Both the position numbers and the translations under genes were made by a program. This document shows positions 3,639-27,548 of a DNA stretch of 34,578 nucleotides, in pieces. A model generated the notes under the pieces. It worked only from the letters and a program-made list of their open reading frames with translations, did not search any database and was not told where the DNA came from. Every line of letters starts with the position of its first letter. The first letter of the stretch is position 1. Origin of the DNA: a virus; the UHGV virus genome UHGV-0107442. The stretch is one strand, 5' to 3'.

Positions 3639-3935
3639 ATGCTGTCGAAAGAACCATCATTTGCATCGCTGCTGGTAAAACAAAGCCCGGCAATGCACTA
3701 CGGTCACGGCTGGATCACGGGTGAGGATGGAAAACGCTGGCATCCATGTCATTCACAAGATGAATTGCTGTCTGAATTGACCACGAGGAAACGGAGAAAG
3801 TCCAAATGTATGCGGCAGAAAGTGAAATGGTTTATCAGTTTCGTTACAGAGGGGAGAGTTATTCAGTACCTGAAGATGATTTGCTCTGTTGCTATCCGTC
3901 ATTGTCGGGCGATGGCAGTTACTTTTTCACGTTAA
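3639..3935 (+). CDS. Small early protein, possibly Fil-like (98 aa)
   Basis: ATG 3639, 8 nt after the cII stop, with GAGG upstream. N-terminus MLSKEPSFASLLVKQSPAMHYGHGWITGEDGKRWHPCHSQ is basic and Cys/His-containing. Its 3' end overlaps the next ORF by 130 nt in another frame, so the extent is uncertain. Confidence 0.45.
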   Translation: MLSKEPSFASLLVKQSPAMHYGHGWITGEDGKRWHPCHSQDELLSELTTRKRRKSKCMRQKVKWFISFVTEGRVIQYLKMICSVAIRHCRAMAVTFSR

Positions 3936-4922: not shown

Positions 4923-5776
4923 GCACCATCCTGAAATGGGCGGGAAATAAAACCGCCATAATGTCCGAACTGAAAAAGCATCTTCCTGCTGGCCCGCGAC
5001 TGGTTGAACCTTTCGCGGGTTCCTGTGCAGTGATGATGGAGACGGATTACCCCAGCTATCTTGTTGCGGATATTAATCCTGATTTAATCAACCTCTATAA
5101 AAAGGTTGCTGCTGATTGTGAGGCGTTTATATCTCGTGCCAGAGCTTTATTTGAGGAAGCAAACAGGGAGGTGGCTTATTACAACATAAGGCAGGAGTTT
5201 AATTACTCCACTGAAATTACTGATTTCATGAAAGCGGTATATTTTCTGTATCTCAATCGTCATGGTTACCGTGGGTTATGTCGCTATAACAAGAGCGGGT
5301 ATTTCAACATTCCCTACGGTAATTATAAAAATCCGTATTTCCCTGAAAAAGAAATTCGCGCATTTGCAGAGAAAGCCCAGCGGGCAACGTTTATCTGCGC
5401 CAGCTTTGATGAAACGCTGGCGATGTTGAAGGCGGGGGATGTGGTGTATTGCGATCCGCCGTATGACGGTACGTTTTCCGGCTATCACACTGATGGTTTC
5501 ACTGAAGATGACCAGTATCACCTGGCATCCGTTCTTGAACATCGGTCATCAGAAGGACATCCGGTCATTGTTTCTAACAGTGACACATCCCTGATCCGTT
5601 CGCTGTATCGCAATTTTACTCACCACTACATCAAGGCAAAACGCAGCATCGGTGTGGCAGCTGGTGATAGTAAATCTGCAACAGAAATCATTGCTGTTTC
5701 CGGGGCGCGCTGCTGGGTGGGATTTGATCCTTCGCGTGGCGTAGATAGTTCTGCTGTGTACGAGGTGCGTGTATGA
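4919..5776 (+). CDS. Dam-type DNA adenine methyltransferase (GATC-class N6-MTase), orphan
   Basis: ORF 4859..5776 begins with TTG; ATG at 4919 follows GGAGG at 8-nt spacing. Has the DPPY catalytic motif (VYCDPPY) and an N-terminal AdoMet region (ILKWAGNK...EPFAGSCAV). No adjacent restriction endonuclease gene. Confidence 0.85.
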
Positions 5777-8166
5777 GTCATGACGATATGAGCAACTCTA
5801 GCGGCTTTAACGAGGCCGCTGCATCATTTTCATGGAACGGCCCGAAAAAGGCCATTAACCCTTATCTGGACCCGGCGGAATTTGCGCCGGAGTCTGCACT
5901 TTCAAACCTGATCACTCTGTATGCTGCCGATAACGAGCAGGAACAACTGCGCCGCGAGGCACTGAGTGAGCAGGTCTGGGAGCGTTATTTCTTTAATGAA
6001 TCCCGTGATCCTGTCCAGCGCGAAATGGAGCAGGATAAGCTCATTAGCCGGGCAAAGCTGGCGCATGAGCAGCAGCGTTTTAATCCAGACATGGTCATTC
6101 TGGCTGACGTCAACGCCCAGCCTTCCCATATCAGCAAGCCGCTGATGCAACGTATTGAATACTTCAGCAGTCTGGGCAGGCCAAAGGCTTATTCCCGCTA
6201 TTTGCGTGAGACGATTAAGCCATGTCTGGAAAGACTGGAGCATGTACGCGACAGTCAGCTATCCACTTCTTTTCGCTTTATGGCAAGCCATGAAGGGCTG
6301 GACGGCCTGCTGATCCTGCCTGAAATGAGTCAGGATCAGGTAAAACGCCTGTCCACCCTGGTAGCAGCGCATATGAGCATGTGTCTTGAGGTCGCTTGTG
6401 GTGATTTGTATGCCACCGATGACGTTAAGCCAGAAGAAATCCGCAAGACATGGGAAAAGGTGGCGGCGGAAACCCTGCGACTGGATGTCATACCGCCTGC
6501 GTTTGAGCAACTCCGCAGGAAAAGAAACCGCCGTAAACCCGTGCCCTATGAACTTATTCCGGGTTCGCTGGCGCGTATGTTGTGCGCCGACTGGTGGTAT
6601 CGGAAATTATGGAAGATGCGTAGCGAATGGCGGGAAGAGCAGTTGCGTGCTGTTTGCCTGGTCAGCAAAAAAGCATCTCCCTATGTCAGCTATGAAGCCG
6701 TGATGCATAAACGTGAGCAGCGCCGTAAGTCGCTGGAGTTTTTCCGTTCTCATGAACTGGTGAACGAAGACGGCGACACGCTGGATATGGAAGACGTGGT
6801 AAACGCCAGCAGCAGCAACCCTGCGCATCGCCGCAATGAGATGATGGCCTGTGTTAAAGGTCTGGAGCTTATCGCGGAAATGCGCGGTGACTGCGCCGTT
6901 TTCTACACCATCACCTGTCCGTCACGTTTCCATTCCACGCTAAATAACGGCAGGCCAAACCCGACCTGGACCAACGCGACAGTAAGACAAAGCAGCGATT
7001 ATCTGGTCGGCATGTTTGCTGCATTTCGTAAGGCTATGCACAAAGCCGGGTTGCGCTGGTATGGCGTGCGGGTGGCTGAGCCGCATCATGACGGCACAGT
7101 TCACTGGCACCTGTTGTGTTTCATGCGCAAAAAAGACCGCCGCGCCATTACTGCATTGTTGCGTAAGTTTGCCATCCGTGAAGACCGCGAGGAGCTGGGC
7201 AATAACACGGGGCCACGCTTTAAGTCTGAGCTGATAAACCCGCGCAAAGGAACGCCGACAAGCTACATTGCGAAATATATCAGTAAGAATATTGACGGGC
7301 GTGGTCTGGCTGGCGAGATCAGTAAGGAAACGGGTAAATCCCTGCGTGATAACGCTGAATACGTTAATGCCTGGGCGTCTCTGCATCGTGTTCAGCAATT
7401 CCGCTTCTTTGGCATTCCGGGGCGTCAGGCTTACCGTGAACTGCGATTGCTGGCTGGTCAGGCGGCAAGGCAACAGGGGGACAAAAAAGCAGGTGCGCCG
7501 GTACTGGATAACCCGCGCCTTGATGCAATCCTGGCTGCTGCTGATGCTGGTTGTTTTGCCACTTACATCATGAAGCAGGGCGGCGTACTGGTTCCCCGCA
7601 AATATCACCTCATCAGAACTGCTTATGAAATTAACGAAGAGCCGACCGCCTATGGCGATCACGGCATTCGTATTTATGGCATCTGGTCACCCATTGCAGA
7701 GGGCAAGATCTGCACTCATGCAGTGAAGTGGAAAATGGTTCGTAAAGCCGTTGACGTTCAGGAGGCGGTAGCCGACCAGGGCGCTTGCGCCCCTTGGACT
7801 CGTGGCAATAACTGTCCCCCTGTTGAAAATATGAACAAATCAGGGGGGGATTTACCCGATATTAAAACCATGGATGAGAAGGAGCTGCAGGAATATCTCC
7901 ACAACATGGGCCAGAAGGAACGGCGGGAGCTGACAGCCAGGTTGAGACTGGTAAAACCGAAGCGAAAAAAAGCATACATACAGAGTATTTCGGAGCAGCA
8001 GCGCCTGCAGCTTGAGGCAGAACTGACTGCCAGAGGGTTTGAGGGTAGTGTATCTGAGATTGATTTGCTTCTGCGTGGCGGCAGCATTCCATCCGGTGCC
8101 GGTTTACGTATTTTTTACCGTAAACAGAGGCTGCAGGAAGATGACAAATGGCGTCGATGGTACTAA
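5773..8166 (+). CDS. A: Rolling-circle replication initiation protein (P2 gpA family)
   Basis: 797 aa; size and position match P2 A (761 aa). Contains the region [13 protein letters not shown] (HUH-like) and downstream YIAKYISK with candidate catalytic tyrosines. Start overlaps the Dam stop. Confidence 0.9.
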
Positions 8167-8235
8167 GGATGCTGTTTAACATTTCGTGCTTTATTGACTG
8201 GAGTCAGTACATCCAATTGACTGACAAAAAAGAGT

Positions 8236-8278
8236 TTTACATTTTTTCTTTCCTACTATACTGTTTGTAAAAACAGTG
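8236..8278 (+). promoter_or_regulatory. SOS-regulated promoter: -35 TTTACA / -10 TATACT overlapping a LexA box
   Basis: TACTGTTTGTAAAAACAGTG (8259..8278) matches the LexA consensus TACTGT-N8-ACAGTA in the CTGT-N8-ACAG core. -35 at 8236..8241 and -10 at 8257..8262 (15-bp spacer, suboptimal). Lies 47 bp upstream of the ATG at 8325. Confidence 0.55.
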
Positions 8279-8324
8279 GGTATATGTACAGTATTTGTGT
8301 ATCCGTGTAATGATAGGAGGGAAG

Positions 8325-8513
8325 ATGCAGGACTATCTTTTGGAGTCATTGAAGCTCCAGCGTATTGATTTTTTTATCAAGCTTGTAGCGGCTAGTGAGT
8401 GCAGCGACGAAGAAAAGCGGCTGGCTATCCAGTGGGTGTCCGAACTGACAGATGAGTTGATGGCGAAAATTCGCAGCCATGAATACAGCCGATCAATGGA
8501 CGTTACCAGTTAA
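8325..8513 (+). CDS. Small SOS-box-controlled protein (62 aa); candidate Tum-like antirepressor module
   Basis: ATG 8325 follows AGGAGGG. Function inferred only from context: 186 places its LexA-controlled antirepressor tum in the equivalent position. Confidence 0.45.
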   Translation: MQDYLLESLKLQRIDFFIKLVAASECSDEEKRLAIQWVSELTDELMAKIRSHEYSRSMDVTS

Positions 8514-8525
8514 AGGGAAATCTGT

Positions 8526-8747
8526 ATGCGCATTGAAATAATGATCGATAAAGAGCAGAAGATTAGCCAGGCCACACTGGAAGCCCTTGAATCCGAGCTC
8601 TACCGTAATTTGCGCCCTCTGTATCCCAAAACAGCAATTCGTATCCGTAAGGGCAGCGCCAATGGTGTTGAACTGAGCGGGTTAAAACTGGATGAAGACA
8701 AAAAGCGAGTAATGGAAATAATGCAGCAGGTTACATTAAAACGTTGA
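8526..8747 (+). CDS. DinI-family protein
   Basis: 73 aa; the MRIEIMI start and overall pattern resemble E. coli DinI (MRIEVTI...). SD AGGGAA upstream; downstream of the LexA box. Confidence 0.8.
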   Translation: MRIEIMIDKEQKISQATLEALESELYRNLRPLYPKTAIRIRKGSANGVELSGLKLDEDKKRVMEIMQQVTLKR

Positions 8748-8908
8748 TCCCGATAGGATCCTATCAGAGGGAACAAGGTTGAACAACGAGTGAAGCGAGG
8801 CGTTAGGTATGGCGGTCATGATCTTCAATGGCCGCCAGCTTTGTACTGTTTGCTCAACCAGCGGGTGCAACATACTTTTCTAACTCGAATATAAGATAAG
8901 ATTTTTTA

Positions 8909-8937
8909 TTTACAACACTTGGCTTGTTCCTTAGTAT
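8909..8937 (+). promoter_or_regulatory. Candidate sigma70 promoter for the ATPase-HNH operon
   Basis: TTTACA (8909..8914), 17-bp spacer, TAGTAT (8932..8937), in AT-rich DNA about 45 bp upstream of the ATG at 8983. Confidence 0.4.
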
Positions 8938-8982
8938 CTAGCTAATCCTGAATGTGGGTTAGTGGAAATTACAAGGAAATAT

Positions 8983-10164
8983 ATGAAACTGACTGAGCTA
9001 ACTATAAACGGTATCGGGGGGATAAAGTCCCTGTACGTAAAATTTAGGCCTGACATGAATATTATATGTGGGCCTAACGGAGTTGGAAAATCCACACTCT
9101 TGCTTGCTGCCTCCTTTCCTTTTCTTCATGGATACACTAATAGAATAAAACGCAATGTCACTTCTGAAACAGGAAGTGTTAGTCTAATAATAGAAGATAA
9201 TTCTGTTAACTTTAATTCAGTATTAGATGTTAACGTTCATTTGCCTACAGAAACAATTCACAACTTTAATAATAACGGATTTGATAAGAGGAAACTAATA
9301 AAATTTGAAATATTACGTAACTTTGATTATAAACATCTTGAGGCGTTGAATGCAGATAAATCACTATCCGATGATGCTGTTTCGCAACAGATTAATTTAG
9401 GTGTCAATTTACATGATATCAAGGATTGGTTTGCTAAGAGGGATTTGTTTGAAAAAGTAGATAATGGTTACGGTCCTAATACGATAAAAAATATACATCT
9501 TGCAAGGGAGTGTATATCAATTTTAAACCCTCAGTTTTCTTACAATCGCGTCGATCCTAAATCTTACGATATTTTTGTAAATACCCCGACCGGGGTAATA
9601 TGGTATGAATATCTGTCCTCGGGATTCAAATCATGTATGAGTCTCCTTCTCGGTATTATTAAAGAGATCGAGCTTCGTTATCCGGAGAAAGATATTTACG
9701 CCCAAGAATTTGATGGAGTGATTCTTATCGATGAAATTGAGCTTCATTTGCATCCTGAGTGGCAGGCAAGAATCACTGAAGCCCTTACGACAACATTTCC
9801 ATCAGCACAATTTATTGTCACAACTCACAGCCCACATGTAGTACAGAATGCAAAACCACATCAGATCATTGCGTTAGTACCAGATAATGATGGCACAGTG
9901 AGAGTAAAAGAACTTCCTGAAAATGGCTTGGGTTATTCTGCCTGGACAGTTGAAGAGGTTTTGTTAGATGTAATGGGGATGGAAAGCACTCTCAGTAGAA
10001 AACTACAAGAACTACTTGATAATTTCGAACGTTTTGTTGATGAAGAAAATTTCGACAAGGCGAAAGAAATTTATGATTATTTGGATATGGCATTGCATCA
10101 AAACAGTATTCTTCGTAAATCTCTTAAAATAAGCCTGATGTCAATTCGAGAGAGAGAAGAGTAA
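8983..10164 (+). CDS. ABC/SMC-like P-loop ATPase, Septu PtuA-like
   Basis: ORF 8962..10164 begins with GTG; ATG at 8983 follows AGGAA. Walker A GPNGVGKST, Walker B VILIDEIELHLHP, then TTHSP. 393 aa; the stop abuts the start of the HNH gene. About 33% GC versus about 52% in the phage backbone. Confidence 0.8.
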   Translation: MKLTELTINGIGGIKSLYVKFRPDMNIICGPNGVGKSTLLLAASFPFLHGYTNRIKRNVTSETGSVSLIIEDNSVNFNSVLDVNVHLPTETIHNFNNNGFDKRKLIKFEILRNFDYKHLEALNADKSLSDDAVSQQINLGVNLHDIKDWFAKRDLFEKVDNGYGPNTIKNIHLARECISILNPQFSYNRVDPKSYDIFVNTPTGVIWYEYLSSGFKSCMSLLLGIIKEIELRYPEKDIYAQEFDGVILIDEIELHLHPEWQARITEALTTTFPSAQFIVTTHSPHVVQNAKPHQIIALVPDNDGTVRVKELPENGLGYSAWTVEEVLLDVMGMESTLSRKLQELLDNFERFVDEENFDKAKEIYDYLDMALHQNSILRKSLKISLMSIREREE

Positions 10165-10165
10165 A

Positions 10166-10912
10166 ATGATTAAGCTTGAACGGAACTTTATTCCTGATTT
10201 TTTTACTCGTGTTGATCTTCTATCTTTAACTCAGGAGTTTAAAGATAATGGAACATCTGTTTGGCATCATCCGGAAGTAAAATCGGCATGTCTAAAATTA
10301 AGTAATGGCAAATGTGCATTTTGTGAGGTCAAGCTTGAAGAGGCTAGCACCTATAATGAAATTGAGCATTTTAAGGATAAAAAAAATTTCCCTGATGATG
10401 TTATTAGATGGGAAAATCTCCTTCCTTCATGCCGTCACTGTAATGGTTCAAAACAACGCCATAATGTTGTACTCAATCCTATAATAAATCCATGCAACGA
10501 TTTACCGTCAGAACACCTTTATATGATAGGGTATCGTATTAAAGGTAAAACTGATTTAGGTAAAACAACAGTGGATGTTTTAAACTTTAATCACAGGGAG
10601 CACAAGTTTATACCGCGTTGTAAAGCAGGGGAACTTATAGATAGCAGTATTGATGACGCAATAGAAAAACTTAATTGGTTTAATGAGAATCCAAGTACTA
10701 GACGTAAAAACATTCTTATGAATCTAGTCGAGGCAATATTAGGTGAGTGTCAGAAAACATCTCCCTTTTCTGCAGTATCAGCAACAATGCTTCATCGTTC
10801 AGTCGAATATTCTTATCTGAAAGAAACCATGCAGATGCAAGGATTATGGTCAGATTATATGCAGGAACTTCATGATGAATCTTTGAGCCTGACGTTACCG
10901 TCAATTCGCTAG
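10166..10912 (+). CDS. HNH endonuclease, Septu PtuB-like
   Basis: 248 aa with CAFCE...EIEHFKDKKNFPDDVIRWENLLPSCRHCNGSK (CxxC...H...N...CxxC HNH core). ATG 10166 is 1 nt after the ATPase stop. Confidence 0.8.
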   Translation: MIKLERNFIPDFFTRVDLLSLTQEFKDNGTSVWHHPEVKSACLKLSNGKCAFCEVKLEEASTYNEIEHFKDKKNFPDDVIRWENLLPSCRHCNGSKQRHNVVLNPIINPCNDLPSEHLYMIGYRIKGKTDLGKTTVDVLNFNHREHKFIPRCKAGELIDSSIDDAIEKLNWFNENPSTRRKNILMNLVEAILGECQKTSPFSAVSATMLHRSVEYSYLKETMQMQGLWSDYMQELHDESLSLTLPSIR

Positions 10913-10938
10913 TTAATACAGTTTTGCCCATAAAAGCT

Positions 10939-10974
10939 AAACGTTCAGATATTCTTGGCTGAACGTTTGATTTT
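10939..10974 (+). terminator. Rho-independent terminator after the HNH gene
   Basis: Stem AAACGTTCAG (10939..10948), 10-nt loop, CTGAACGTTT (10959..10968), followed by GATTTTAT. Confidence 0.6.
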
Positions 10975-11257
10975 ATGAAGACGATAAGCAGATTGGGCCC
11001 GAGTGAGTATCTCGGGAAAATAAACCATTTACATACTATGTTTAACGTTCAAAGCACACCTCAAGCTTTCTTAGTTCTTCTGCTTCGATATATAAACGGT
11101 CATTTGGTTACGAACATTCACTTCTCCCCTAAGTGCATGGCTATGCTGCATGAGATCGCATGACCGTTTGAGGAGCGTTGTAACGCAGGCGTGCCAGTTG
11201 TGACGGACTTTTTCGTATGTTATGCACCTGCATGAAAACCATTGCACAAAGCGGGCA

Positions 11258-11284
11258 GGCGTGGCGGGGATACGAGCGCGCGCT
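11258..11284. other. cos-like sequence (P2/186-type cohesive-end site)
   Basis: GGCGTGGCGGGGA at 11258..11270 matches the first 13 nt of the 186 cohesive end (GGCGTGGCGGGGAAAGCAT as remembered) and 12 of 13 of P2. The following GCGCGCT also resembles sequence next to P2 cos. The last 6 nt of the 19-mer differ, so this is not certain. Confidence 0.45.
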
Positions 11285-11378
11285 AACTCATAAATCCTAG
11301 ATTATTAGTGGATTTATCTCATTGAAATGTGCACTATTCCCAGCATTGAGTTGTACCAGATGTCTTTATGGAGGGACT

Positions 11379-13145
11379 GTGGCTTTTGTAACTGATATTC
11401 GGCTTGAAGATAATGCTATTGCTGCACCTGCGACAGCACAGGTTATGGCTCAGAGGCTAGGATCTGTATTACGTAAGAGATATGAAGAATTCATCCATAA
11501 AAGAGAGTGTGCACCAGGCCAAGCAGACTATGATGTAAAAATGGCTAGCAGGGCTTTAGCTGCATTCACTATGTATCAGTTAGGATGTGTGGATGATAAG
11601 TATGCAGGGGAGTCTGTATGTGATAGTAGTGAAGATGGTGGTATAGATGGAATAGCAATCAACCATAACGAAAAAATCGTTGTTGTTGTTCAATCAAAAT
11701 TTCACCAATCGGGAAACGGCACTTGGACAAGAGCCGATTTTATGTGTTTTAAGGATGCTTGTGAGAAGCTACAAAGTGAAAGATACGAATTATTTGATTC
11801 CATATTGCAAAATAAAAGCGGGGAAATAAGTGCGGCTTTAAGTAGTTTTGAATACAAGTTCATCTTTGCGATGGCGCATACAGGTAAAAAAGGTGCTGCA
11901 GAGGAAATATTAAATGATATGCGGGAATGGCAATATCAATTAAACGCTGCAGCTTTTACACCTGAGGATGAGCCTAAAGAGAACTGGGGATTTCAGGTTC
12001 ATTTAATATCCTCTGAAGATATGATGCATTGGTTACAGAATGGCTCTCGAAATCAAATTGATCTTAACAGGGTTGAAATTGAGCGTTTTGGATTTTTGAA
12101 TGAACCATATCAAGCTTTTTACGGGGCTATTAGTGGTGATCAAGTTGCAGAATGGTGGGAAGAGCATGGTGCTCGATTATTTACAAAAAACATAAGGAAT
12201 ATGCTTGGTAAAACAGAAGTGAATGAGGAAATAAAAAAGACAGCTATAGATAATCCTGATATGTTTTGGTTTTATAATAATGGGATTACTGTACTGGTTA
12301 AGGAGGTTGTTCCTCATAGACGAAACGCAGCTCCTAATATAGAGAGAGGGATTTTTGATTTTCGTGATGTAAGTGTCATTAATGGTGCACAAACAGTCAG
12401 TAGTATTGGCGCATGTAAAGATGCGCTTGGTGAAAACATATATAGACTCAAAGTGCCAGCCAGATTCATTGTTATAGATGATGATACTGATAATTTAACT
12501 GCAAATGCGATTACAAAAGCTAACAATTTCCAAAATAGAGTATTGGGAAGAGATTTTGCGTCGCAGCAGGCAGATCAACATAGATTGGCAAGGGAGTTAG
12601 TGCTTGAAGGATATCAATATCAGTTACTAAGAACAGATGAAGATCATTCACAGACAAATACGAAAGTCATTGACTTGGATGAGGCGCTCAATGCACTCGC
12701 ATGTTTAAGTAAAAATAATACGGTTGTATCGACACTAAAATCAAATCGCGGTAGGTTTTTTGAAAATTTTGAAGGCTCTCTATATAAAACTATTTTCAAT
12801 CCAAGATTAAGTGGTTTAAAACTTATCAATACTGTTCTACATTTTAGAGTTATAGATAAGTTGATCGGTAAAACATTACTATCAGTAGATAAAACTACCC
12901 ATAGTCGCAAGCATTTAATTATTACGCATGGTAATAGATACTATGCGTCTGTGCTATTGAGCAACGTTTCTGGGATACATAATAGCTCAGAAATTCTTGT
13001 TCCAGATGAAAAAAATCTTTCAGAAGAATTAAGTGCATTAATTCAACGTGCTGAAGAGTACATTGAAGATAATTACCCGAATGCCTATCCGGCAAGATTT
13101 TTTGCAAATCCAACGAAAATACAAGAGTTATACGATAATGTTTAA
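11379..13145 (+). CDS. AIPR-family (abortive-infection phage-resistance) protein with an N-terminal PD-(D/E)xK-like nuclease motif
   Basis: ORF 11322..13145 begins with TTG. Start uncertain: GTG 11379 (GGAGGG 3 nt upstream) or ATG 11445. N-terminal DSSEDGGIDGIAI...VVVVQSKF resembles Mrr/restriction-endonuclease-like D...QxK. Central WFYNNGITVLV...VINGAQT matches the AIPR hallmark as remembered. AT-rich. Confidence 0.7.
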   Translation: MAFVTDIRLEDNAIAAPATAQVMAQRLGSVLRKRYEEFIHKRECAPGQADYDVKMASRALAAFTMYQLGCVDDKYAGESVCDSSEDGGIDGIAINHNEKIVVVVQSKFHQSGNGTWTRADFMCFKDACEKLQSERYELFDSILQNKSGEISAALSSFEYKFIFAMAHTGKKGAAEEILNDMREWQYQLNAAAFTPEDEPKENWGFQVHLISSEDMMHWLQNGSRNQIDLNRVEIERFGFLNEPYQAFYGAISGDQVAEWWEEHGARLFTKNIRNMLGKTEVNEEIKKTAIDNPDMFWFYNNGITVLVKEVVPHRRNAAPNIERGIFDFRDVSVINGAQTVSSIGACKDALGENIYRLKVPARFIVIDDDTDNLTANAITKANNFQNRVLGRDFASQQADQHRLARELVLEGYQYQLLRTDEDHSQTNTKVIDLDEALNALACLSKNNTVVSTLKSNRGRFFENFEGSLYKTIFNPRLSGLKLINTVLHFRVIDKLIGKTLLSVDKTTHSRKHLIITHGNRYYASVLLSNVSGIHNSSEILVPDEKNLSEELSALIQRAEEYIEDNYPNAYPARFFANPTKIQELYDNV

Positions 13146-13149
13146 ACTA

Positions 13150-13173
13150 AAGGGAGGTTGCCTCCCTTTTTTT
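13150..13173. terminator. Bidirectional terminator between the convergent AIPR and portal genes
   Basis: AAGGGAGG-TTG-CCTCCCTT hairpin (13150..13168) running into a T-run through 13173, with an A-rich stretch on the other side. It fills almost all of the 30-bp gap between the two stops. Confidence 0.65.
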
Positions 13174-13175
13174 AA

Positions 13176-14201
13176 TTAGAAATGGTATTCTTGGAATTCA
13201 ATAACACCTTCTTTTATGAAATTGTTTATTTCTTGTAATCTTTTTTGCAATGGCAATAATTCATTACGTACAAATACTTTACTCGCCTTCTCTACATCTC
13301 CAAAGCCCCCAACATTATTAGGCATTATCCCCATCATTTGCGGTGGCACACGATGCGCCGCCATCATGTCATCCCGGCTCACGTTCTTGATGTTTAGAAA
13401 CTCATCCTTCGCCGCCACTTCTGACAACGGGATAATCTGAAGTCCGTCCTTTTTCCCGTTAGGCGAGTACATAAACAGGTTGCGGAAGTTACCTGGTCCT
13501 TTGGCGCTTTTCATCGCATTGCGGAGGTTGTTCACATCCTCCTGGTTTTGCGCGGCATCGGTCATGTACATGATGAAGCCTGCATGACTGCCGTTAATGT
13601 AATACTTTCGGCGGAACAGCGTGGCGGACTCGTTGAGCAGGGCTGACGGAATGGCAGAAAGGTAACCTGGCAGGCCGTAGATCTCCTGGTTGATGTCCGG
13701 TTCCATCAGATGAAAGATGCTTCCTTTCGTGAACTGATATGGCTGCGTGGTCATACCGTATTGCACAAACCAGTAGGTATCCAGGTCTAACCCGCGTCGG
13801 GTGTATTTTGCCAGGGCAGGTTCAAGGGCGATAACTTCACCGAAGCGGTTAGTGCGTTTCTCCAGGTAGGCGTTACCAAAAACCAGATAGTCCTGCACAA
13901 AACGTGAAAAAGCCTGCTGGCTGAGCAGCGGGTGAGGGATATAGGTGCTGGACAGAATGTTGCACTTTACTGCAATCGGGGAGCTGTGATGTACGGCAGC
14001 GCGGAAGGTTCGCGCCAGCCCGTCGAAACTCACTGGTGGCTCATACCAGCGGTCCATCTGTACGCATTCCACATAGTCCAGTAATTCGCGGCGGTCCAGA
14101 ACAGGAACGGGATCACCGAAGCTGAATGCTTCGGCTGAAGTTTGGTTTTTATGCTGGATCTGGTTCGTCGCCGCAGCGCGGTTTTTCTTACTCTTTCCCA
14201 T
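13176..14201 (-). CDS. Q: Portal protein (P2 gpQ family)
   Basis: 341 aa from ATG 14201 (-); the track's 14204 start is TTG. Size and position match P2 Q; the start overlaps the P stop (ATGA). Confidence 0.9.
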   Translation of the reverse strand: MGKSKKNRAAATNQIQHKNQTSAEAFSFGDPVPVLDRRELLDYVECVQMDRWYEPPVSFDGLARTFRAAVHHSSPIAVKCNILSSTYIPHPLLSQQAFSRFVQDYLVFGNAYLEKRTNRFGEVIALEPALAKYTRRGLDLDTYWFVQYGMTTQPYQFTKGSIFHLMEPDINQEIYGLPGYLSAIPSALLNESATLFRRKYYINGSHAGFIMYMTDAAQNQEDVNNLRNAMKSAKGPGNFRNLFMYSPNGKKDGLQIIPLSEVAAKDEFLNIKNVSRDDMMAAHRVPPQMMGIMPNNVGGFGDVEKASKVFVRNELLPLQKRLQEINNFIKEGVIEFQEYHF

Positions 14202-15967
14202 CAAAAAATCTCCACAATATTGCTGGTATTGGCGGACTCGCCCTGCAGCGGTTCGTTAAACAGTGCGTGCATTGTTGCCCAGGCCAGATCGGCATGGCTG
14301 GCTTCTTCGCTGCGGCTGGCTTCATAGGTTGGGCGGTTGCCGCTGGCGGTGGTGGCGCGACGGATTGCCATAAATGACTGCGCTATGTCGGTGTGTCCGG
14401 CGTCAAACTCCAGACGACGGTGACTGATAATGTCGTAGGCCTTGAGTACCAGGGCGTTTTTAACGTTGGGGTTGTAGACAAACTCCCGGACGGCTGGAAA
14501 AAACGCTTTCACGTTCTCGTAAACCCCGTGGCCGACACCTGTCGAGTCGATGCCGATGTAGGTCACGTTGTACTGTTCGGTCAGTTTTTTGATGGCGTCA
14601 GCCTGGGCGCGAAAGTCCATTCCGCGCCACTGGTGACGCTCAAGAATGCGGAACTTGCCGCCCGGTACGGTTGGCGGAGCCACCACCACGCATCCGGCGC
14701 TGTCGCCATTCTGCGTACCTTTCGCCGGGTCATAACCGATCCATACTTCGCGCCAGCCAAACGGGCGCAGGGCCAGTGCATGAAAGTCAGTCCAGACTTC
14801 CCAGCTGTCTACCATGCACGCCTGCAGCTCGCTGAGCGGGAACACGGACGCGAGATCGTCCACAAACTCGCACATCAGCAGGTTCTGGTATTCGTCCGGG
14901 CTGTACTCCATGCGCAACTGGTCAAGGTCGAACAGGTTACAGCCGCCGCGCACCGCATCTTCCACGGTGACTATCTGGCGGTATTGCCCGTCTGCGCACA
15001 GCAGGCCGGGGGCCAGATTGCTGTGGGACAGGTCGATGTCCACCTTATCGGCTTTGTTGCGCCCACGGTTGAACAGCGCACCGGACCAGAACGGATAAGC
15101 ACTGTGGGTCAGGCTGGATGGTGTGGAAAAATAGGTCTGCCGCCATTTCTTGTGAATAGCCATACCGGAAGCCACTTTGCGTAGCTCCTGAAATTTCGGT
15201 ATCCAGAAATATTCATCCAGATACAGGTTGCCGTGATAACTCTGAGCCGTGCGGGCATTGGTGCCGAGGAAGTAAAGCGTGGCCCCGTTAGGAAGCACCA
15301 TCGGATCGCCTTTCAGTTCCACATCCACTTCTTTGGCGAAGTCGATGATGTACTGCTTAAAGACGTGGGCCTGTGCCTTACTGGCGGAAAGAAAAATCTG
15401 GTTACGTCCGGTAAGCAGGGCGTCAATCAGGGCTTCACGGGCAAAGTAAAAGGTCGCGCCGATCTGGCGTGACTTCAGCAGGTTGCGGATGCGGTTGGTT
15501 TTTCCGACTTCCCACCAGTGGCGCTGGTAGTTGAACATGGAGGAATGGAAGATTTCTTCCAGCTTCTCAATCTGTTCATCGGTGAAGACATTCTTTTCCG
15601 GCTGACGGCGCGGGCCTTTGTTGCGGTTGGCGACGTTAGGGTTTAAGTCAGCTTCGTTGCCGCCATTGTTAAACTTGCCGATCCGCGCGTGGCGCTCCGA
15701 CTGGCGCGCCAGCAGGTCAATCTCTTTGAAATCTTTCCCTTCTTTGTGCTCCTTCATGATGAGCTGGCAGTAGCGTGCGGCGGTGGTGAGCTGCATCTGA
15801 TCCAGCGGCCCATAGTCACCCCACTTGTCGCGTTTTTTCCAGCTGTGAACGGTTGCAACTTTCTCGCCCAGCATTTCAGCAATGCGGGCTACGCGGTATC
15901 CCTGAAAGTACAGCAGCATGGCCTGCCGACGGGGATCGAGATCTGCGGGTGTCAGTGTGGTGTTCAT
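14201..15967 (-). CDS. P: Terminase large (ATPase) subunit (P2 gpP family)
   Basis: 588 aa; the P-then-Q leftward operon is characteristic of P2-like phages. ATG at 15967 (-). Confidence 0.9.
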   Translation of the reverse strand: MNTTLTPADLDPRRQAMLLYFQGYRVARIAEMLGEKVATVHSWKKRDKWGDYGPLDQMQLTTAARYCQLIMKEHKEGKDFKEIDLLARQSERHARIGKFNNGGNEADLNPNVANRNKGPRRQPEKNVFTDEQIEKLEEIFHSSMFNYQRHWWEVGKTNRIRNLLKSRQIGATFYFAREALIDALLTGRNQIFLSASKAQAHVFKQYIIDFAKEVDVELKGDPMVLPNGATLYFLGTNARTAQSYHGNLYLDEYFWIPKFQELRKVASGMAIHKKWRQTYFSTPSSLTHSAYPFWSGALFNRGRNKADKVDIDLSHSNLAPGLLCADGQYRQIVTVEDAVRGGCNLFDLDQLRMEYSPDEYQNLLMCEFVDDLASVFPLSELQACMVDSWEVWTDFHALALRPFGWREVWIGYDPAKGTQNGDSAGCVVVAPPTVPGGKFRILERHQWRGMDFRAQADAIKKLTEQYNVTYIGIDSTGVGHGVYENVKAFFPAVREFVYNPNVKNALVLKAYDIISHRRLEFDAGHTDIAQSFMAIRRATTASGNRPTYEASRSEEASHADLAWATMHALFNEPLQGESANTSNIVEIF

Positions 15968-23815: not shown

Positions 23816-24413
23816 TCTGCTGCCACCGGGTTCAACACCACTGGAGCGCCGACTGGCGCAAACCTGCAGCGGGATTTCTGATCTGCAGGTGCCGCTTCGT
23901 GACTTGTGGAATCCGGCAACCTGTCCGGTCAGTTTCCTGCCTTATCTCGCCTGGGCGTTCTCTGTGGATCGCTGGGACGAGGGCTGGACAGAAAGCGTCA
24001 AGCGCCAGGTGGTGAAGGATGCTTTTTATATTCATCAGCATAAAGGGACCACCAGTGCCGTGCGGCGGGTGGTGGAGCCGTTCGGATTCCTGATCCGCAT
24101 TATTGAGTGGTGGCAGACCGGAGAAACACCGGGCACGTTTCGCCTGGATATCGGCGTGCAGGACCAGGGCATCACTGAAGATACCTATCTGGAACTTGAG
24201 CGACTGATAAGCGATGCCAAACCATGTAGCCGCCACATGATCGGCATGTCCATCAATCTGCAGACCAGCGGCCCGCATTGGGTGGGAGCCGCCAGCTATC
24301 TTGGCGAAGAAATCACGATCTATCCGTATATCAACGAAACGATTATTTCCGGTGGCACCGCGCATGAAGGCGGGGCGGTCCATGTTATTGACACAATGAG
24401 AGTGAATCCATGA
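23808..24413 (+). CDS. I: Baseplate / tail protein (P2 gpI family)
   Basis: 201 aa; overlaps both neighbours. Confidence 0.85.
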   Translation: MNSLLPPGSTPLERRLAQTCSGISDLQVPLRDLWNPATCPVSFLPYLAWAFSVDRWDEGWTESVKRQVVKDAFYIHQHKGTTSAVRRVVEPFGFLIRIIEWWQTGETPGTFRLDIGVQDQGITEDTYLELERLISDAKPCSRHMIGMSINLQTSGPHWVGAASYLGEEITIYPYINETIISGGTAHEGGAVHVIDTMRVNP

Positions 24414-25801
24414 GCACAAAATTTTATACCCTGCTGACGGATATTGGCGCGGCGAAACTTGCCAGCGCCGCCGCGCTCGGTGTGCCGCTAAAAATTACCC
24501 ATATGGCGGTGGGCGATGGCGGTGGAGTATTGCCAACGCCGGACGCAAAGCAGACGGCACTGGTAAATGAGAAACGCCGGGCTGCGCTGAATATGCTTTA
24601 TATCGACCCGCAGAACAGCAGCCAGATTATTGCCGAACAGGTGATCCCTGAAAACGAGGGCGGTTGGTGGATACGTGAAGTGGGCTTGTTTGATGAGTCC
24701 GGGGCATTGATTGCCGTGGGCAACTGCCCGGAAAGCTATAAGCCGCAACTGGCTGAAGGTAGCGGGCGCACTCAGACCGTGCGCATGGTGCTGATTACCA
24801 GCAGCACGGACAATATCACCCTGAAAATCGACCCTGCTGTAGTGCTGGCAACCCGCAAGTATGTGGATGACAAGGCACTGGAGCTGAAGGTGTACGCGGA
24901 TGATCAGATGGCAAAACATCTTGCCGCACCGGACCCGCATTCACAGTACGCGCCAAAAGCCAGCCCGACATTTACCGGAACCCCCAAAGCGCCAACGCCA
25001 GCGGCGGGGAATAATACCACGCAGGTTGCGACCACTGCGTTTGTACAGGCGGCACTGACGGCCCTTATTAATGGTGCGCCAGCCACGCTGGACACGCTGA
25101 AAGAAATAGCCGCAGCCATTAACAATGATCCGAATTTCAGTACCACCATTAACAATGCGCTGGCACTAAAAGCACCGTTGTCGAGTCCGGCACTCACCGG
25201 AACGCCAACAGCCCCCACGGCGGCGCAGTCGATCAACAATACACAGATTGCCACTACGGCTTTTGTGAAATCGGCGATTGCAGGAATGGTGGGTTCTGCA
25301 CCTGCTGCACTGGATACACTGAACGAACTGGCGGCGGCACTGGGGAATGATCCGAACTTTGCCACGACAATGCTTAATGCGCTGGCAGGTAAACAACCGC
25401 TGGACAATACGCTTACCAATTTGAGTGGAAAGGATGTAGCTGGTCTTCTCACATACCTTGGTTTGGGAGAAGCCAGATATGTCATTCAGCGAGGAGCTAA
25501 TGTCAATGGTGCATGGATACGCTGGTCAGATGGTGCAATAGAAGTATTTGGAACTGGTGGTTCCAATGATAATGGGCTGGCTAAAGTCGTTTATCCAATT
25601 GCACTACCTAAGCTTTCACGTTTTATCAGCATAGCGGAAAGAATAAGAACAGATTACGAGGCCACACCTAATAACGTTCACGTTTCAATGATCGTGGATG
25701 ACCAGGTCAGTAATACAGGTTTTTATGTCCGCTGCCAGATGTACGACGGAAGACCATCAACAAGTGCTTTTTCCTGGAGAGTTTATTGTGCGCCTGTTTA
25801 A
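24410..25801 (+). CDS. H: Tail fibre protein (P2 gpH-like constant N-terminal region plus variable C-terminus in the current orientation)
   Basis: 463 aa. Two tandem copies of a roughly 70-aa repeat (...TGTPKAPTPAAGNNTTQVATTAFVQAAL...DTLKEIAAAINNDPNF... and ...TGTPTAPTAAQSINNTQIATTAFVKSAI...DTLNELAAALGNDPNF...). The inversion crossover site lies inside the gene at 25458..25478 (encodes GLGEAR). Confidence 0.85.
   Translation: MSTKFYTLLTDIGAAKLASAAALGVPLKITHMAVGDGGGVLPTPDAKQTALVNEKRRAALNMLYIDPQNSSQIIAEQVIPENEGGWWIREVGLFDESGALIAVGNCPESYKPQLAEGSGRTQTVRMVLITSSTDNITLKIDPAVVLATRKYVDDKALELKVYADDQMAKHLAAPDPHSQYAPKASPTFTGTPKAPTPAAGNNTTQVATTAFVQAALTALINGAPATLDTLKEIAAAINNDPNFSTTINNALALKAPLSSPALTGTPTAPTAAQSINNTQIATTAFVKSAIAGMVGSAPAALDTLNELAAALGNDPNFATTMLNALAGKQPLDNTLTNLSGKDVAGLLTYLGLGEARYVIQRGANVNGAWIRWSDGAIEVFGTGGSNDNGLAKVVYPIALPKLSRFISIAERIRTDYEATPNNVHVSMIVDDQVSNTGFYVRCQMYDGRPSTSAFSWRVYCAPV
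25458..25478 (+). repeat. Left inversion crossover site, inside H
   Basis: Identical to the reverse complement of 26894..26914. Confidence 0.7.
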
Positions 25802-25985
25802 TCCTGTTACTTTGACTGAAGTAATCCCCGGTCTTCATGACGTGACCGGGGCTGTGGAATTACCAGAAGATAACTGGTTTTTTACTGCATCTGAAATCCC
25901 TGAAGGAATGGAAATATCTGTTAACGAGAAGGGCGAACCCATTCTGATTGAGATTAAACCATATCAGGTGGAACTGGCCAGATAA
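25788..25985 (+). CDS. Small ORF after the active fibre C-terminus; putative tail-fibre assembly/chaperone protein (65 aa)
   Basis: GTG 25788 follows GGAGA at 7-nt spacing and overlaps the H stop. Function assigned by position (equivalent to U of Mu-type invertible segments); no motif recognised. Confidence 0.4.
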   Translation: MRLFNPVTLTEVIPGLHDVTGAVELPEDNWFFTASEIPEGMEISVNEKGEPILIEIKPYQVELAR

Positions 25986-26220
25986 CCCCCGGCGCGGTGC
26001 TGGTATCTGCTTCCATCACCGCGTCGATATTACCAACATCATATTCAGTCATTTCCGGTTCCGGTGGTGCTATAAACTCTCCGTCAGAATAGAACCAACC
26101 GACGCCTGCATCTATATGATCAATATTTATAATTTCGCAGTTAGAGAATAAATCACCCTCTCCATCCCAGATAATAATATTTTTCACCACGCCATGTTCA
26201 ATCAGAGCAAAATTACTCAT
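25954..26220 (-). CDS. Small ORF of the alternative cassette; putative tail-fibre assembly/chaperone protein (88 aa)
   Basis: ATG at 26220 (-) overlaps the stop of the alternative fibre C-terminus (ATGA). Convergent with the ORF at 25788..25985, as expected for an invertible segment. Confidence 0.5.
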   Translation of the reverse strand: MSNFALIEHGVVKNIIIWDGEGDLFSNCEIINIDHIDAGVGWFYSDGEFIAPPEPEMTEYDVGNIDAVMEADTSTAPGVIWPVPPDMV

Positions 26221-26954
26221 CAGGCATACTCCTCAACAATAACTATTCCCGGGGCACCGTCACCTCCCGATTGAGCCTCACTTCCAGCAGGTGCGCAGGC
26301 TCCGCCTCCGCCAGAACCAAAGCCCTCAGCTTTACCACCACCACGTCCGCTGAATGATGAAGAACTTGCACCACCTATACCGCCTGAACCTAATGGTGTA
26401 TCCCCCCCGTTACCCCCTGCTACAGCTTTAACAGAGATAACCATTGCTCCTGGTGTTTTTGCACTACAGCGAAATGCTCTTAGTACAGTACCGGACGATG
26501 TCGGACTGGCACCCCGTGAAATACCCTGAATATATGATGTGTTTGCAGATGCTCCCCCCGCGCCACCGCCTGTACCACCAGGTGCAGTTATCATGGAACC
26601 GAAATAAGTTGTGCCACCTTCACTACCTGAATTTCTTCCGGCTCCCCCCCCTTTACCTGCAGCACCGATAATAACGTTGACTTCGAAATCATTATCAACC
26701 TCGAAAAATGCTTCAATAAATGCGCCGCTCAATCCAGCTCCGGCTGTTGCCTGCTGATTTTCTGTTGTTTCAGGAACCCCACCGCCGCCGCCACCGCCAC
26801 CAGAGGCAATGACCCTTATCTTTTTTGTCCCTGGTGTTGGGATATATTTTCCAGAGCTTTTAAAAATATTCGTGTTTAACAAACGACCAGAGAATCTGGC
26901 TTCTCCCAAACCAACGTTTAAGAAAATGCAGAGGTAACAGCTAACTGGCATCAT
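26220..26954 (-). CDS. Alternative, glycine-rich tail-fibre C-terminal cassette (silent in this orientation)
   Basis: The minus-strand ORF encodes VGLGEARF at the crossover site (26894..26914), in frame with the same GLGEAR encoded in H. Inversion would fuse about 230 aa of Gly-rich sequence (runs such as GGGGGGGG, GGTGGGAGG) to the H constant part. The first 14 codons before the crossover are probably not part of any real protein. Confidence 0.65.
   Translation of the reverse strand: MMPVSCYLCIFLNVGLGEARFSGRLLNTNIFKSSGKYIPTPGTKKIRVIASGGGGGGGGVPETTENQQATAGAGLSGAFIEAFFEVDNDFEVNVIIGAAGKGGGAGRNSGSEGGTTYFGSMITAPGGTGGGAGGASANTSYIQGISRGASPTSSGTVLRAFRCSAKTPGAMVISVKAVAGGNGGDTPLGSGGIGGASSSSFSGRGGGKAEGFGSGGGGACAPAGSEAQSGGDGAPGIVIVEEYA
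26901..26926. repeat. Right inversion crossover site (gix/hix/cix-like)
   Basis: TTCTCCCAAACC-AA-CGTTTAAGAAAA: two 12-bp half-sites around a 2-bp core, resembling remembered hix/gix sites (for example TTCTTGAAAACC-AA-GGTTTTTGATAA). Confidence 0.6.
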
Positions 26955-26981
26955 CTCCGGTTTTTATTCAGGGGGATGATC

Positions 26982-27548
26982 ATGCTTATTGGCTATGTAC
27001 GCGTGTCAACAAATGACCAGAACACCGATTTGCAACGTAATGCACTGAATTGCGCGGGATGTGAGCAGATTTTTGAGGACAAAATCAGTGGCACTAAGTC
27101 CGACAGACCGGGGCTGAAAAAACTACTCAGGACACTATCGGCAGGAGACACGCTGGTTGTCTGGAAGCTGGACAGGTTGGGGCGCAGTATGCGGCATCTT
27201 GTTACGCTGATAGAAGAGTTGCGCCAGCGTGGTGTGAATTTCGGAAGCCTGACTGACAGTATTGATACCAGTACCCCAATGGGCCGTTTCTTTTTTCATG
27301 TCATGGGTGCCCTGGCTGAAATGGAACGCGAACTGATAGTTGAACGTACCAGGGCAGGGCTGGCTGCAGCTCGTGCCAAAGGCAGAGTAGGTGGACGCCG
27401 TCCTAAGTTGACCACCGAACAGTGGGCACAGATTGGGCGTTTACTCGAGGCCGGAGAATCAAGACAGCGTATTGCACTGATTTTTGATGTAGGCGTTTCT
27501 ACCATTTATAGAAAATTTCCGGCAAATAAGATCAATGAATCCCCCTGA
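26982..27548 (+). CDS. Serine recombinase, DNA invertase (Hin/Gin/Cin/Pin family)
   Basis: MLIGYVRVSTNDQNTDLQ... with the catalytic-serine motif (VRVSTNDQ) and a C-terminal HTH. ATG 26982 follows AGGGGG; an alternative ATG at 26976 is in frame. Confidence 0.85.
   Translation: MLIGYVRVSTNDQNTDLQRNALNCAGCEQIFEDKISGTKSDRPGLKKLLRTLSAGDTLVVWKLDRLGRSMRHLVTLIEELRQRGVNFGSLTDSIDTSTPMGRFFFHVMGALAEMERELIVERTRAGLAAARAKGRVGGRRPKLTTEQWAQIGRLLEAGESRQRIALIFDVGVSTIYRKFPANKINESP

Follow-up and report, generated by a model that had tools for sequence, protein, structure and literature searches.

Septu and AIPR/AbiU-like cargo on opposite sides of cos in the AT-rich stretch of a 186/P2-like prophage

P2-like phages have a hotspot of anti-phage genes that lies next to the cohesive-end site cos, between gpA and gpQ (Rousset et al. 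2022, Cell Host Microbe, PMC9122126), and the tin/old region of P2 has been described as variable (Odegrip et al. 2006, as cited in PMC9122126). Here, we examine an AT-rich stretch at positions 8748 to 13175 of the UHGV virus genome UHGV-0107442, the whole 34,578 nucleotides of which are referred to as the window. Judged by its genes, the window is a 186/P2-like prophage, that is, a member of the P2 family with a 186-like early region, and the AT-rich stretch consists of three genes, all on the + strand, which encode PtuA and PtuB of a Septu system and an AIPR/AbiU-like protein. We conclude that this stretch is very probably the known cos-proximal gpA-gpQ hotspot, with two exchangeable cargo loci flanking cos, Septu in the right arm and the AIPR/AbiU-like gene in the left arm.

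The likeness to the hotspot of Rousset et al. lies in the position between gene A (with a DinI-like gene) and Q, beside cos, and in a variable content that can include more than one system per locus. Nothing essential differs, although that paper treats gpA-gpQ as one locus and we distinguish two, on opposite sides of cos. Our analysis adds refinements, namely, a right border inside Q and switches of parental sequence within ~40 bp of cos, which bear on the speculation of those authors that the cohesive ends are a substrate for recombination (PMC9122126). The protein set was already known, since Table S5A of that paper (PMC9122126) lists, under contig NZ_QRXQ01000009, WP_001154444, WP_053887526, WP_021542068, WP_053887525, and WP_053887527, which in the relatives studied here are a small open reading frame (ORF), PtuA, AIPR, PtuB, and the DinI-like protein, respectively; the PtuA, PtuB, and DinI accessions annotate the locus of strain EC50 (L005), and the AIPR accession annotates locus L006. 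Similarly, the p95-tum-orf97 region of phage 186 and tin/old of P2 place cargo downstream of gene A and upstream of cos, in 186 after a DinI-like gene. In 186, a promoter under LexA control and a partial terminator precede the cargo gene, and at equivalent places in the window there are a LexA-box-like site and a hairpin. The cargo proteins of P2 and 186, in contrast, are unrelated to those of the window.

Two AT-rich cargo loci separated by cos

An earlier note on this DNA had judged by eye that 8.9-13.1 kb is far more AT-rich than its flanks and that codon usage follows suit, and both judgments were borne out by calculation. In 500-bp sliding windows, the GC fraction was 0.51 to 0.55 over gene A, 0.33 to 0.44 over ~8.9-13.2 kb, and 0.50 to 0.60 over the late genes. 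By interval, GC was 37.4% for 8748-13175, 52.8% for gene A, and 55.0% from 13176 to the end. When the island was instead delimited by homology (8807-13230), it had 37.0% GC compared to 52.9% for the remaining window (z = -21.2), and the eight 500-bp windows inside it were lower in GC than the 59 outside (Mann-Whitney p = 5e-6). A scan of the entire sequence placed the start of the lowest-GC 4428-bp window at 8871, and maximum-likelihood change points in composition fell at ~8865 on the left and 13340 on the right, on which side low GC extends ~50 nt into the portal ORF and the final 60 nt of gene Q have 25% GC. GC at third codon positions (GC3) was 0.30 for PtuA, 0.27 for PtuB, and 0.26 for AIPR compared to 0.57 to 0.70 for the backbone (gene A, Q, P, O, N, M, sheath, and tape measure). 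The codons AAA, AAT, and ATT together account for 12 to 15% of cargo codons versus 5 to 7% of backbone codons, and the codon adaptation index (CAI) against backbone genes was 0.46 to 0.49 for the cargo versus 0.65 to 0.82 for the backbone itself.

The two parts of the cargo have 36.3% GC each, and between them the low-GC stretch is broken by a conserved 152-bp block (11133-11284) of 55.9% GC. The clue to this block was that many prophages without either cargo module still matched a short piece ending near 11284. The block is present at 80 to 85% identity in 97 P2-like phage records (Klebsiella, Yersinia, Escherichia, and Salmonella) and in all nine related E. coli loci, and it contains a 19-nt cohesive-end sequence, GGCGTGGCGGGGATACGAG (11258-11276, + strand). 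This sequence, the sole match in the window to the core GGCGWGGCGGGGA, aligns with the annotated cosL of P2, GGCGAGGCGGGGAAAGCAC, and with the cos of 186, GGCGTGGCGGGGAAAGCAT, including the common flanks GCGGGC...GCGCGC. It was first spotted by eye and then recovered with the shorter core; a search with the P2 19-mer allowing up to three mismatches returned no match in the window, whose cos differs from it at five positions. Since cos lies inside 11133-11284, the island straddles both ends of the packaged chromosome. Cargo begins ~9 nt to the right and ~125 nt to the left of the 19-mer, and conservation in the rightward direction ends 8 to 14 nt past it. What the earlier note had described as one hotspot with two boundaries is thus a pair of loci with the cos block between them, module 1 at 8807-11132 and module 2 at ~11285-13230. 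Module 1, which encodes PtuAB, is the last item of the right arm and occupies the place of tin/old in P2 and orf97 in 186, while module 2, which encodes AIPR, is the first item of the left arm, between cos and Q. The gap between cos and Q is 167 bp in P2 and 176 bp in 186 and contains no gene, only a terminator. A 62-amino-acid (aa) ORF starting with ATG (10975-11163) that overlaps the cos block had no match in PADLOC, Pfam, or PHROG and was treated as probably noncoding.

We mapped the module borders through blastn comparison of the window with nine related prophages of E. coli. On the left, backbone homology stops at 8731, within the 3' end of the DinI-like gene (8526-8747, + strand; Pfam DinI E = 1.3e-17), which is the last backbone gene on that side. 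Beyond it lies a conserved 33-bp block (8774-8806, equivalent to 3694-3726 of locus L013). E. coli S1 has a near-empty prophage (L013) in which this 33-bp block is only 8 bp from the cos block (11133-11284 of the window corresponding to L013 3734-3885), so module 1 is 8807-11132 and begins directly after it. On the right, homology to prophages with other cargo picks up only at 13194-13231, inside the ORF of the portal gene Q (13176-14204, - strand; Pfam Phage_portal, with a portal gene in all relatives), the stop of which is at 13176. The true borders are therefore 8806/8807 on the left and ~13194-13231 on the right, inside the AT-rich 3' end of Q, so that the positions 8747 and 13176, given by the earlier note as precise, were close but not exact.

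The AT-rich 3' end of Q, comprising its last ~18 to 20 codons (13176-13230, - strand), changes together with the adjoining cargo. GC in the last 60 nt of Q ranges from 20 to 42% in the nine related prophages (20 to 33% in eight of them) versus 53 to 55% in P2 and 186, and the final ~20 portal codons are nonetheless kept at the protein level (E-I-N-x-W/F-...-V-I-x-F-x-x-Y). Given a conserved protein tail encoded by AT-rich DNA, we take the 3' end of Q to travel with the cargo, and the cos-Q cassettes seemingly bring along a portal 3' end of their own. At the module borders, we found no att-like sites and no direct or inverted repeats save an imperfect arm pair (I2, 8804-8830 / 13061-13087), which was taken for chance; other repeat matches at the borders are short chance matches in AT-rich DNA. 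Furthermore, no recombinase ORF was found within 8748-13175 in the ORF list or by PADLOC and Pfam. With its own recombinase and flanking direct repeats both wanting at 8748-13175, an integrase-mobilized genomic island was rejected as a description of the stretch.

Independent assortment and parental switches at cos

Among 5426 complete E. coli genomes, module 1 occurred in 4 (all at 100% identity) and module 2 in 12 (all at no less than 99.5% identity), with both together in 3. Some part of the window between 8100 and 13400 was matched by 1258 of these genomes, the cargo being common to only 3. PtuAB is accompanied either by AIPR or, in strain EC50, by a gene with a dsDNA-nuclease domain and a hypothetical gene. 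AIPR has at least four partners (PtuAB, ComF with a hypothetical gene, DarTG, and DUF2971), and a fifth pairing, with KAP_NTPase, is listed in Table S5A of Rousset et al. (PMC9122126). The remaining relatives carry a P-loop/KAP NTPase, DprA, retron St85, another AIPR, DUF4145, or almost nothing. The modules are 99.5 to 100% identical while the adjoining backbones are only 85 to 93% identical. Altogether, each module assorts independently, both of the other one and of the backbone, and the occurrence of near-identical modules on diverged backbones, rather than GC content, indicates recent transfer. The claim of the earlier note that both modules are foreign cargo acquired independently of the phage backbone thus holds, given the two different neighbors of PtuAB and the four or more of AIPR. 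The note had also suggested asking which cargo related prophages have between the same two boundaries; the nine compared here vary in their cargo at these places, the boundaries are different ones, and cos divides the region.

Two of the prophages are decayed. In EC50 (L005/L014, NZ_CP056073), a deletion joins terminase to the tape-measure gene, and in E423 (L007, NZ_CM173464), a truncated portal gene is fused beside tail genes and an IS5 fragment lies between DarTG and cos. Since the defence cargo is intact in both, the cargo outlives the phage.

The inference of recent acquisition from low GC, as drawn in the earlier note, could not be sustained. In the nine related prophages, all cargo at either locus has 32 to 43% GC, and AIPR orthologues elsewhere are similarly AT-rich, with GC contents of 36.7% (Klebsiella lambdoid prophage), 37.3% (Pectobacterium island), and 42.3% (Pseudomonas protegens, where the flanks have 58 to 64%). 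Dating of the transfer by GC amelioration was rejected for the same reason, namely, that none of the hosts examined has cargo families that are not AT-rich. It could be argued that low GC arises mainly in place, through selection or mutational bias (e.g., H-NS silencing or control of the expression of toxic defence genes), and is not a foreign or recent mark at all. Such a bias would agree with the narrow GC range of the cargo in nine prophages whatever the gene content, with the AT-richness of AIPR orthologues in hosts of 50 to 63% GC, and with the composition of Q, which belongs to the backbone and yet is AT-rich in its final ~20 codons beside the cargo. However, this explanation is compatible with horizontal transfer, which is shown separately, both by modules that stay nearly identical where the backbones have diverged and by the AIPR orthologues that other genera carry in lambdoid prophages and chromosomal islands. 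We consider it unlikely, if well worth keeping in mind, that bias in place is the main cause. Instead, we favor the view that the cargo is AT-rich because it is drawn from a mobile, AT-rich pool of defence genes.

Comparison with the two closest loci places a change of parent at cos. EC50, which has PtuAB in common with the window, shows zero mismatches over the 400 nt to the left of cos, the first mismatch being at 11285. The locus of strain 98206, which has AIPR in common, matches the window over all of the 1900 nt to the right of cos and has 33 mismatches in the 125 nt on the other side, of which that at 11247 is closest to cos. Since EC50 is identical up to 11284 and 98206 is identical from 11248 onward, the window switches parent within 11248-11284, a 37-bp interval that includes the 19-nt cohesive end. 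When all pairs of the ten loci were compared, the three with a common right arm diverged 18 to 27 nt after cos position 1, and the six with a common left arm diverged 11 to 14 nt before it. Every mapped parental switch therefore falls within ~40 bp centered on cos, a clustering that describes ten loci rather than a population sample. In our reading, cargo moves between P2-like phages by the swapping of whole genome arms.

The equal GC and orientation of the two modules, together with their joint presence at 100% identity in three E. coli genomes, might suggest a single genomic island that was acquired in one event and is bounded by the stops of the DinI-like and portal genes. This possibility is refuted by the cos block, which is common to 97 P2-like phages and splits the region, and it is at odds with the occurrence of each module with other partners, with the change of parent inside 11248-11284, and with the failure to find flanking repeats or an integrase belonging to the island. 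We regard a single island as extremely improbable and retain the reading of two cargo loci, one on each side of cos.

We can only be tentative about the mechanism that generates new combinations. The junctions centered on cos fit the speculation of Rousset et al., and, as far as the sequences tell, recombination at a short identical core is equally compatible with them. It is possible that there are two hotspots, one per chromosome end, and that new combinations arise mainly through the joining of right and left arms by their 19-nt cohesive ends, a proposal to which we give somewhat less than even weight. Under this proposal, arm joining would occur during coinfection, coinduction, or concatemer formation, with a second crossover elsewhere in the backbone. 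Since they would carry their own AT-rich last ~20 portal codons, the cos-Q cassettes would circulate only among P2-like phages. In plasmid pFR77, into which sequence of a P4-like satellite from E. coli E1167 was cloned (Table S2B of Rousset et al.), a different AIPR gene of 33% identity forms the cargo and likewise begins only a few nucleotides beyond the cos 19-mer (...GGCGAGGCGGGGAAAGCAC TGCGCG, then TTAGAC...). Read from this junction, satellites put cargo on the same side of cos as module 2 and at the same distance from it.

Gene content of the two modules

Module 1 encodes an ABC-type ATPase and an HNH nuclease in a two-gene operon, as in known Septu systems. The first gene, ptuA (8983-10164, + strand), encodes a 393-aa protein that matches the PADLOC Septu model PDLC00305 over positions 1 to 391 of 392 (E = 1.2e-151) and has Pfam matches to AAA_21/AAA_15. 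Its motifs comprise a Walker A (GPNGVGKS, residue 30), a signature-like sequence (LSSGFKS, 211), a Walker B (LIDEIE, 248), and an H-loop (TTHSP, 280), so that the Walker A, Walker B, and H-loop motifs of known Septu are intact. The solved PtuA structure 8EE4 was matched at E = 9e-23, the alignment by sequence covering only the C-terminal half, residues 203 to 373. A longer reading of ptuA from GTG at 8962 was dropped in favor of ATG at 8983, which is supported by a Shine-Dalgarno sequence and by the agreement of 393 aa with RefSeq WP_053887526. The second gene, ptuB (10166-10912, + strand), starts 1 nt past the ptuA stop and encodes a 248-aa protein that matches the PADLOC Septu model PDLC00342 over its full length (E = 1.6e-95). 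PtuB has the Cys/His motifs of HNH nucleases (CAFCE at residue 50, EIEHF at 65, and SCRHCN at 88), and its Pfam HNH match is weak. The Septu system (PtuA/PtuB) is known from Doron et al. 2018 and from the structures 8EE4 and 8EE7.

The only PtuA and PtuB models in NCBIfam are those of retron Ec78, which module 1 matches in part, and solved retron PtuA structures were matched as well; module 1 might accordingly be viewed as the effector pair of a type I-A retron (Ec78/Eco7-like). The scores, however, are far below the cutoffs of these models (148.8 bits versus 500 for PtuA and 54 versus 150 for PtuB), and PtuA has 393 aa versus ~550 aa in retron PtuA. Furthermore, we found no reverse transcriptase (RT) ORF in or beside the module (8100-13400), a search of Rfam at E <= 0.1 over 8000-13500 returned no match and hence no retron noncoding RNA (ncRNA) or riboswitch, and the best PADLOC models are full-length Septu PtuA and PtuB. 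A retron is almost certainly not what module 1 is; since there is neither an RT ORF nor an Rfam RNA and the retron-Ec78 models fall far below threshold, we conclude that it is a stand-alone Septu.

By homology, an oligomer of the PtuA ATPase would hold the PtuB nuclease, and phage infection would unleash the nuclease and block phage growth. Homologous Septu forms a PtuA6:PtuB2 complex with regulated nuclease activity and confers phage resistance, and the substrates of characterized Septu are supercoiled DNA, which is nicked, and tRNA-Tyr (PMC12819146, PMC13096335). By analogy with these systems, we infer both the defence activity of module 1 and its molecular targets.

Putative expression signals surround module 1. 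Upstream of the DinI-like gene and of a 62-aa backbone ORF lies a pattern match to a LexA box (CTG-N10-CAG; CTGTTTGTAAAAACAG, 8261-8276, + strand), which overlaps TATACT, a -10-like hexamer, and occupies the position that corresponds, in the p95/tum SOS operon of phage 186, to the annotated LexA site with promoter p95. This site suggests that the prophage is SOS inducible, and SOS read-through into PtuAB on induction is possible. The 62-aa ORF (8325-8513, + strand) belongs to phrog_698 (PHROGs E = 2.5e-36) and is annotated in every relative as a hypothetical gene of 189 nt. A terminator scan found a hairpin after the 33-bp block, where module 1 starts (8810-8837, + strand; fold -20 kcal/mol, z = -3.1), and this hairpin is a candidate equivalent of t95a, the partial terminator of 186. 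Upstream of ptuA, a promoter-like TTTACA-17-TAGTAT (8909-8937, + strand) was returned by a consensus scan of the region, which yielded 19 sites versus 18.2 expected in shuffled sequences; since this count is no higher than in shuffles, the site is a candidate promoter at most. Downstream of ptuB, a strong hairpin with a T-rich tract (10938-10969, + strand; fold -18.3 kcal/mol, z = -5.6) is a candidate terminator of module 1. A further hairpin, AAAGGGAGG-TTG-CCTCCCTTT (13149-13169), was found by the terminator scan in the gap where the AIPR and Q genes converge and can fold on either strand (z = -2.9 and -3.4). As seven T residues follow it on the + strand, it is likely the terminator of AIPR and possibly that of the Q/P operon too. 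We read all three hairpins as putative terminators. For the AIPR gene, the consensus scan gave no convincing promoter.

The AIPR/AbiU-like gene of module 2 (11379-13145, + strand) encodes 588 aa from a GTG start with GGAGGG 5 nt upstream. A longer reading from TTG at 11322 was dropped for this start on the grounds of its Shine-Dalgarno sequence and the agreement of RefSeq annotation. Pfam AIPR (PF10592) matched residues 287 to 582 of the 607-aa ORF with 121.5 bits (cutoff 25), and PHROG 1841 matched at 7e-173. PADLOC AbiU (PDLC02357) matched at E = 7.4e-25 over profile positions 45 to 512 of 537, which indicates a distant relationship. In an alignment of 38 full-length orthologues at 52 to 87% identity from Enterobacterales, Aeromonas, Vibrio, Pseudomonas, Shewanella, and cyanobacteria, the invariant residues were D82, DGGID (86 to 90), and Q105-x-K107 in the N-terminal part and NNG (300 to 302), NGAQT (335 to 339), and RDFASQ (391 to 396) in the AIPR domain. 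A search by sequence among solved structures returned no match, so the fold had to be predicted, and structure prediction gave the N-terminal domain a FokI-like, restriction-endonuclease-like fold. The protein is thus predicted to be an N-terminal PD-(D/E)xK nuclease fused to a ParB/DndB-like AIPR domain.

AbiU1 and AIPR belong to one family (PMC3506569), and a FokI-like domain in lactococcal AbiU was reported in a 2026 review (PMC13064643), a report that our prediction independently reproduces. AbiU delays phage transcription and gives weak protection, the anti-phage phenotype being shown for lactococcal AbiU only (PMC13064643). Like AbiU (AbiUi) of Lactococcus lactis, the window protein is a single polypeptide of ~590 aa with an AIPR domain and a FokI-like N terminus. 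Unlike AbiU, it has no AbiUii-like or HEPN partner gene. It would act alone, in the manner of AbiU, as a nuclease-based abortive-infection or restriction-like defence, and the ParB/DndB-like domain may perhaps serve as a nucleotide- or DNA-sensing regulator. Its homologues and predicted fold point to a defence role, with the caveat that the 33%-identical P4-satellite AIPR cloned by Rousset et al. (PMC9122126) was among the additionally tested, not validated systems. The MZA system was rejected as an identity, given an NCBIfam MzaE score of 58.3 bits against a cutoff of 1050 and no MzaABCD partner genes present.

Full-length orthologues at 58 to 81% identity occur in diverse contexts. In Klebsiella pneumoniae (L016, JAYFJR010000039), the gene follows the replication genes of a lambdoid prophage; in Pectobacterium carotovorum (L017, CP088019), it lies in a chromosomal island beside RES-domain, PDDEXK_4, and Hcp genes and is followed by a conserved 305-aa ORF with no assigned function; and in Pseudomonas protegens (L019, PIZE01000014), it lies among housekeeping genes. 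Going by these neighborhoods, the AIPR gene behaves as a free-standing one-gene cassette.

Could the cargo serve the phage itself, for example, as a nuclease and an ATPase associated with packaging or replication? Its location directly beside cos and the terminase/portal operon is suggestive, Rousset et al. note nondefensive hotspot cargo such as partition systems and toxins (PMC9122126), and a homologue of AIPR lacks validated defence. Both modules are dispensable, however, as relatives carry unrelated genes or nothing in their places and P2 and 186 do without them, and both families are defined by anti-phage phenotypes (Septu and AbiU). We therefore consider a phage-serving function very unlikely and prefer to regard the modules as anti-phage cargo.

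Backbone features and meaning of the hotspot

The backbone of the window includes genes for integrase, CI, CII, an invertase, gene A (5773-8166; Pfam Phage_GPA E = 3e-127), the DinI-like protein, portal Q, terminase P (14201-15967, by Pfam), capsid, tail, and tail fibers. In close relatives, the prophage is located between rcdA and ybjL. A GC dip to 43 to 45% marks a likely invertible tail-fiber segment at 24410-27548, which resembles the host-range switches Mu G and P1 C. This segment comprises a tail-fiber gene on the + strand (24410-25801), a small ORF (25954-26220) and an alternative fiber C-terminal ORF (26220-26954) on the - strand, and an invertase gene with Resolvase/HTH_7 domains (26976-27548; Pfam 1e-52). 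A second low-GC patch, with 37.4% GC over 1900-2800, has its features within 1932-2795 on the - strand, namely, the CI repressor gene (2139-2795; Phage_CI_repr and Phage_CI_C) and a 63-aa ORF (NCBIfam PRK10040-like). The int-CI immunity region varies among relatives, with 91.5% identity or no homology in L014 and L015.

For annotation of such prophages, these results favor labeling Septu, then cos, then the AIPR/AbiU-like gene, and drawing the borders by homology and not by stop codons. In the main, the finding confirms what is known, that is, that AT-rich, rapidly exchanged anti-phage cargo lies next to cos in P2-like prophages. It goes slightly beyond the literature in that the junctions cluster within ~40 bp of the cohesive end and that cargo is present on both sides of it. 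If arms are indeed joined through their cohesive ends, the speculation of Rousset et al. about cos would become a directly testable mechanism, the signature of which would be parental switches confined to ~-14 to +27 around cos.

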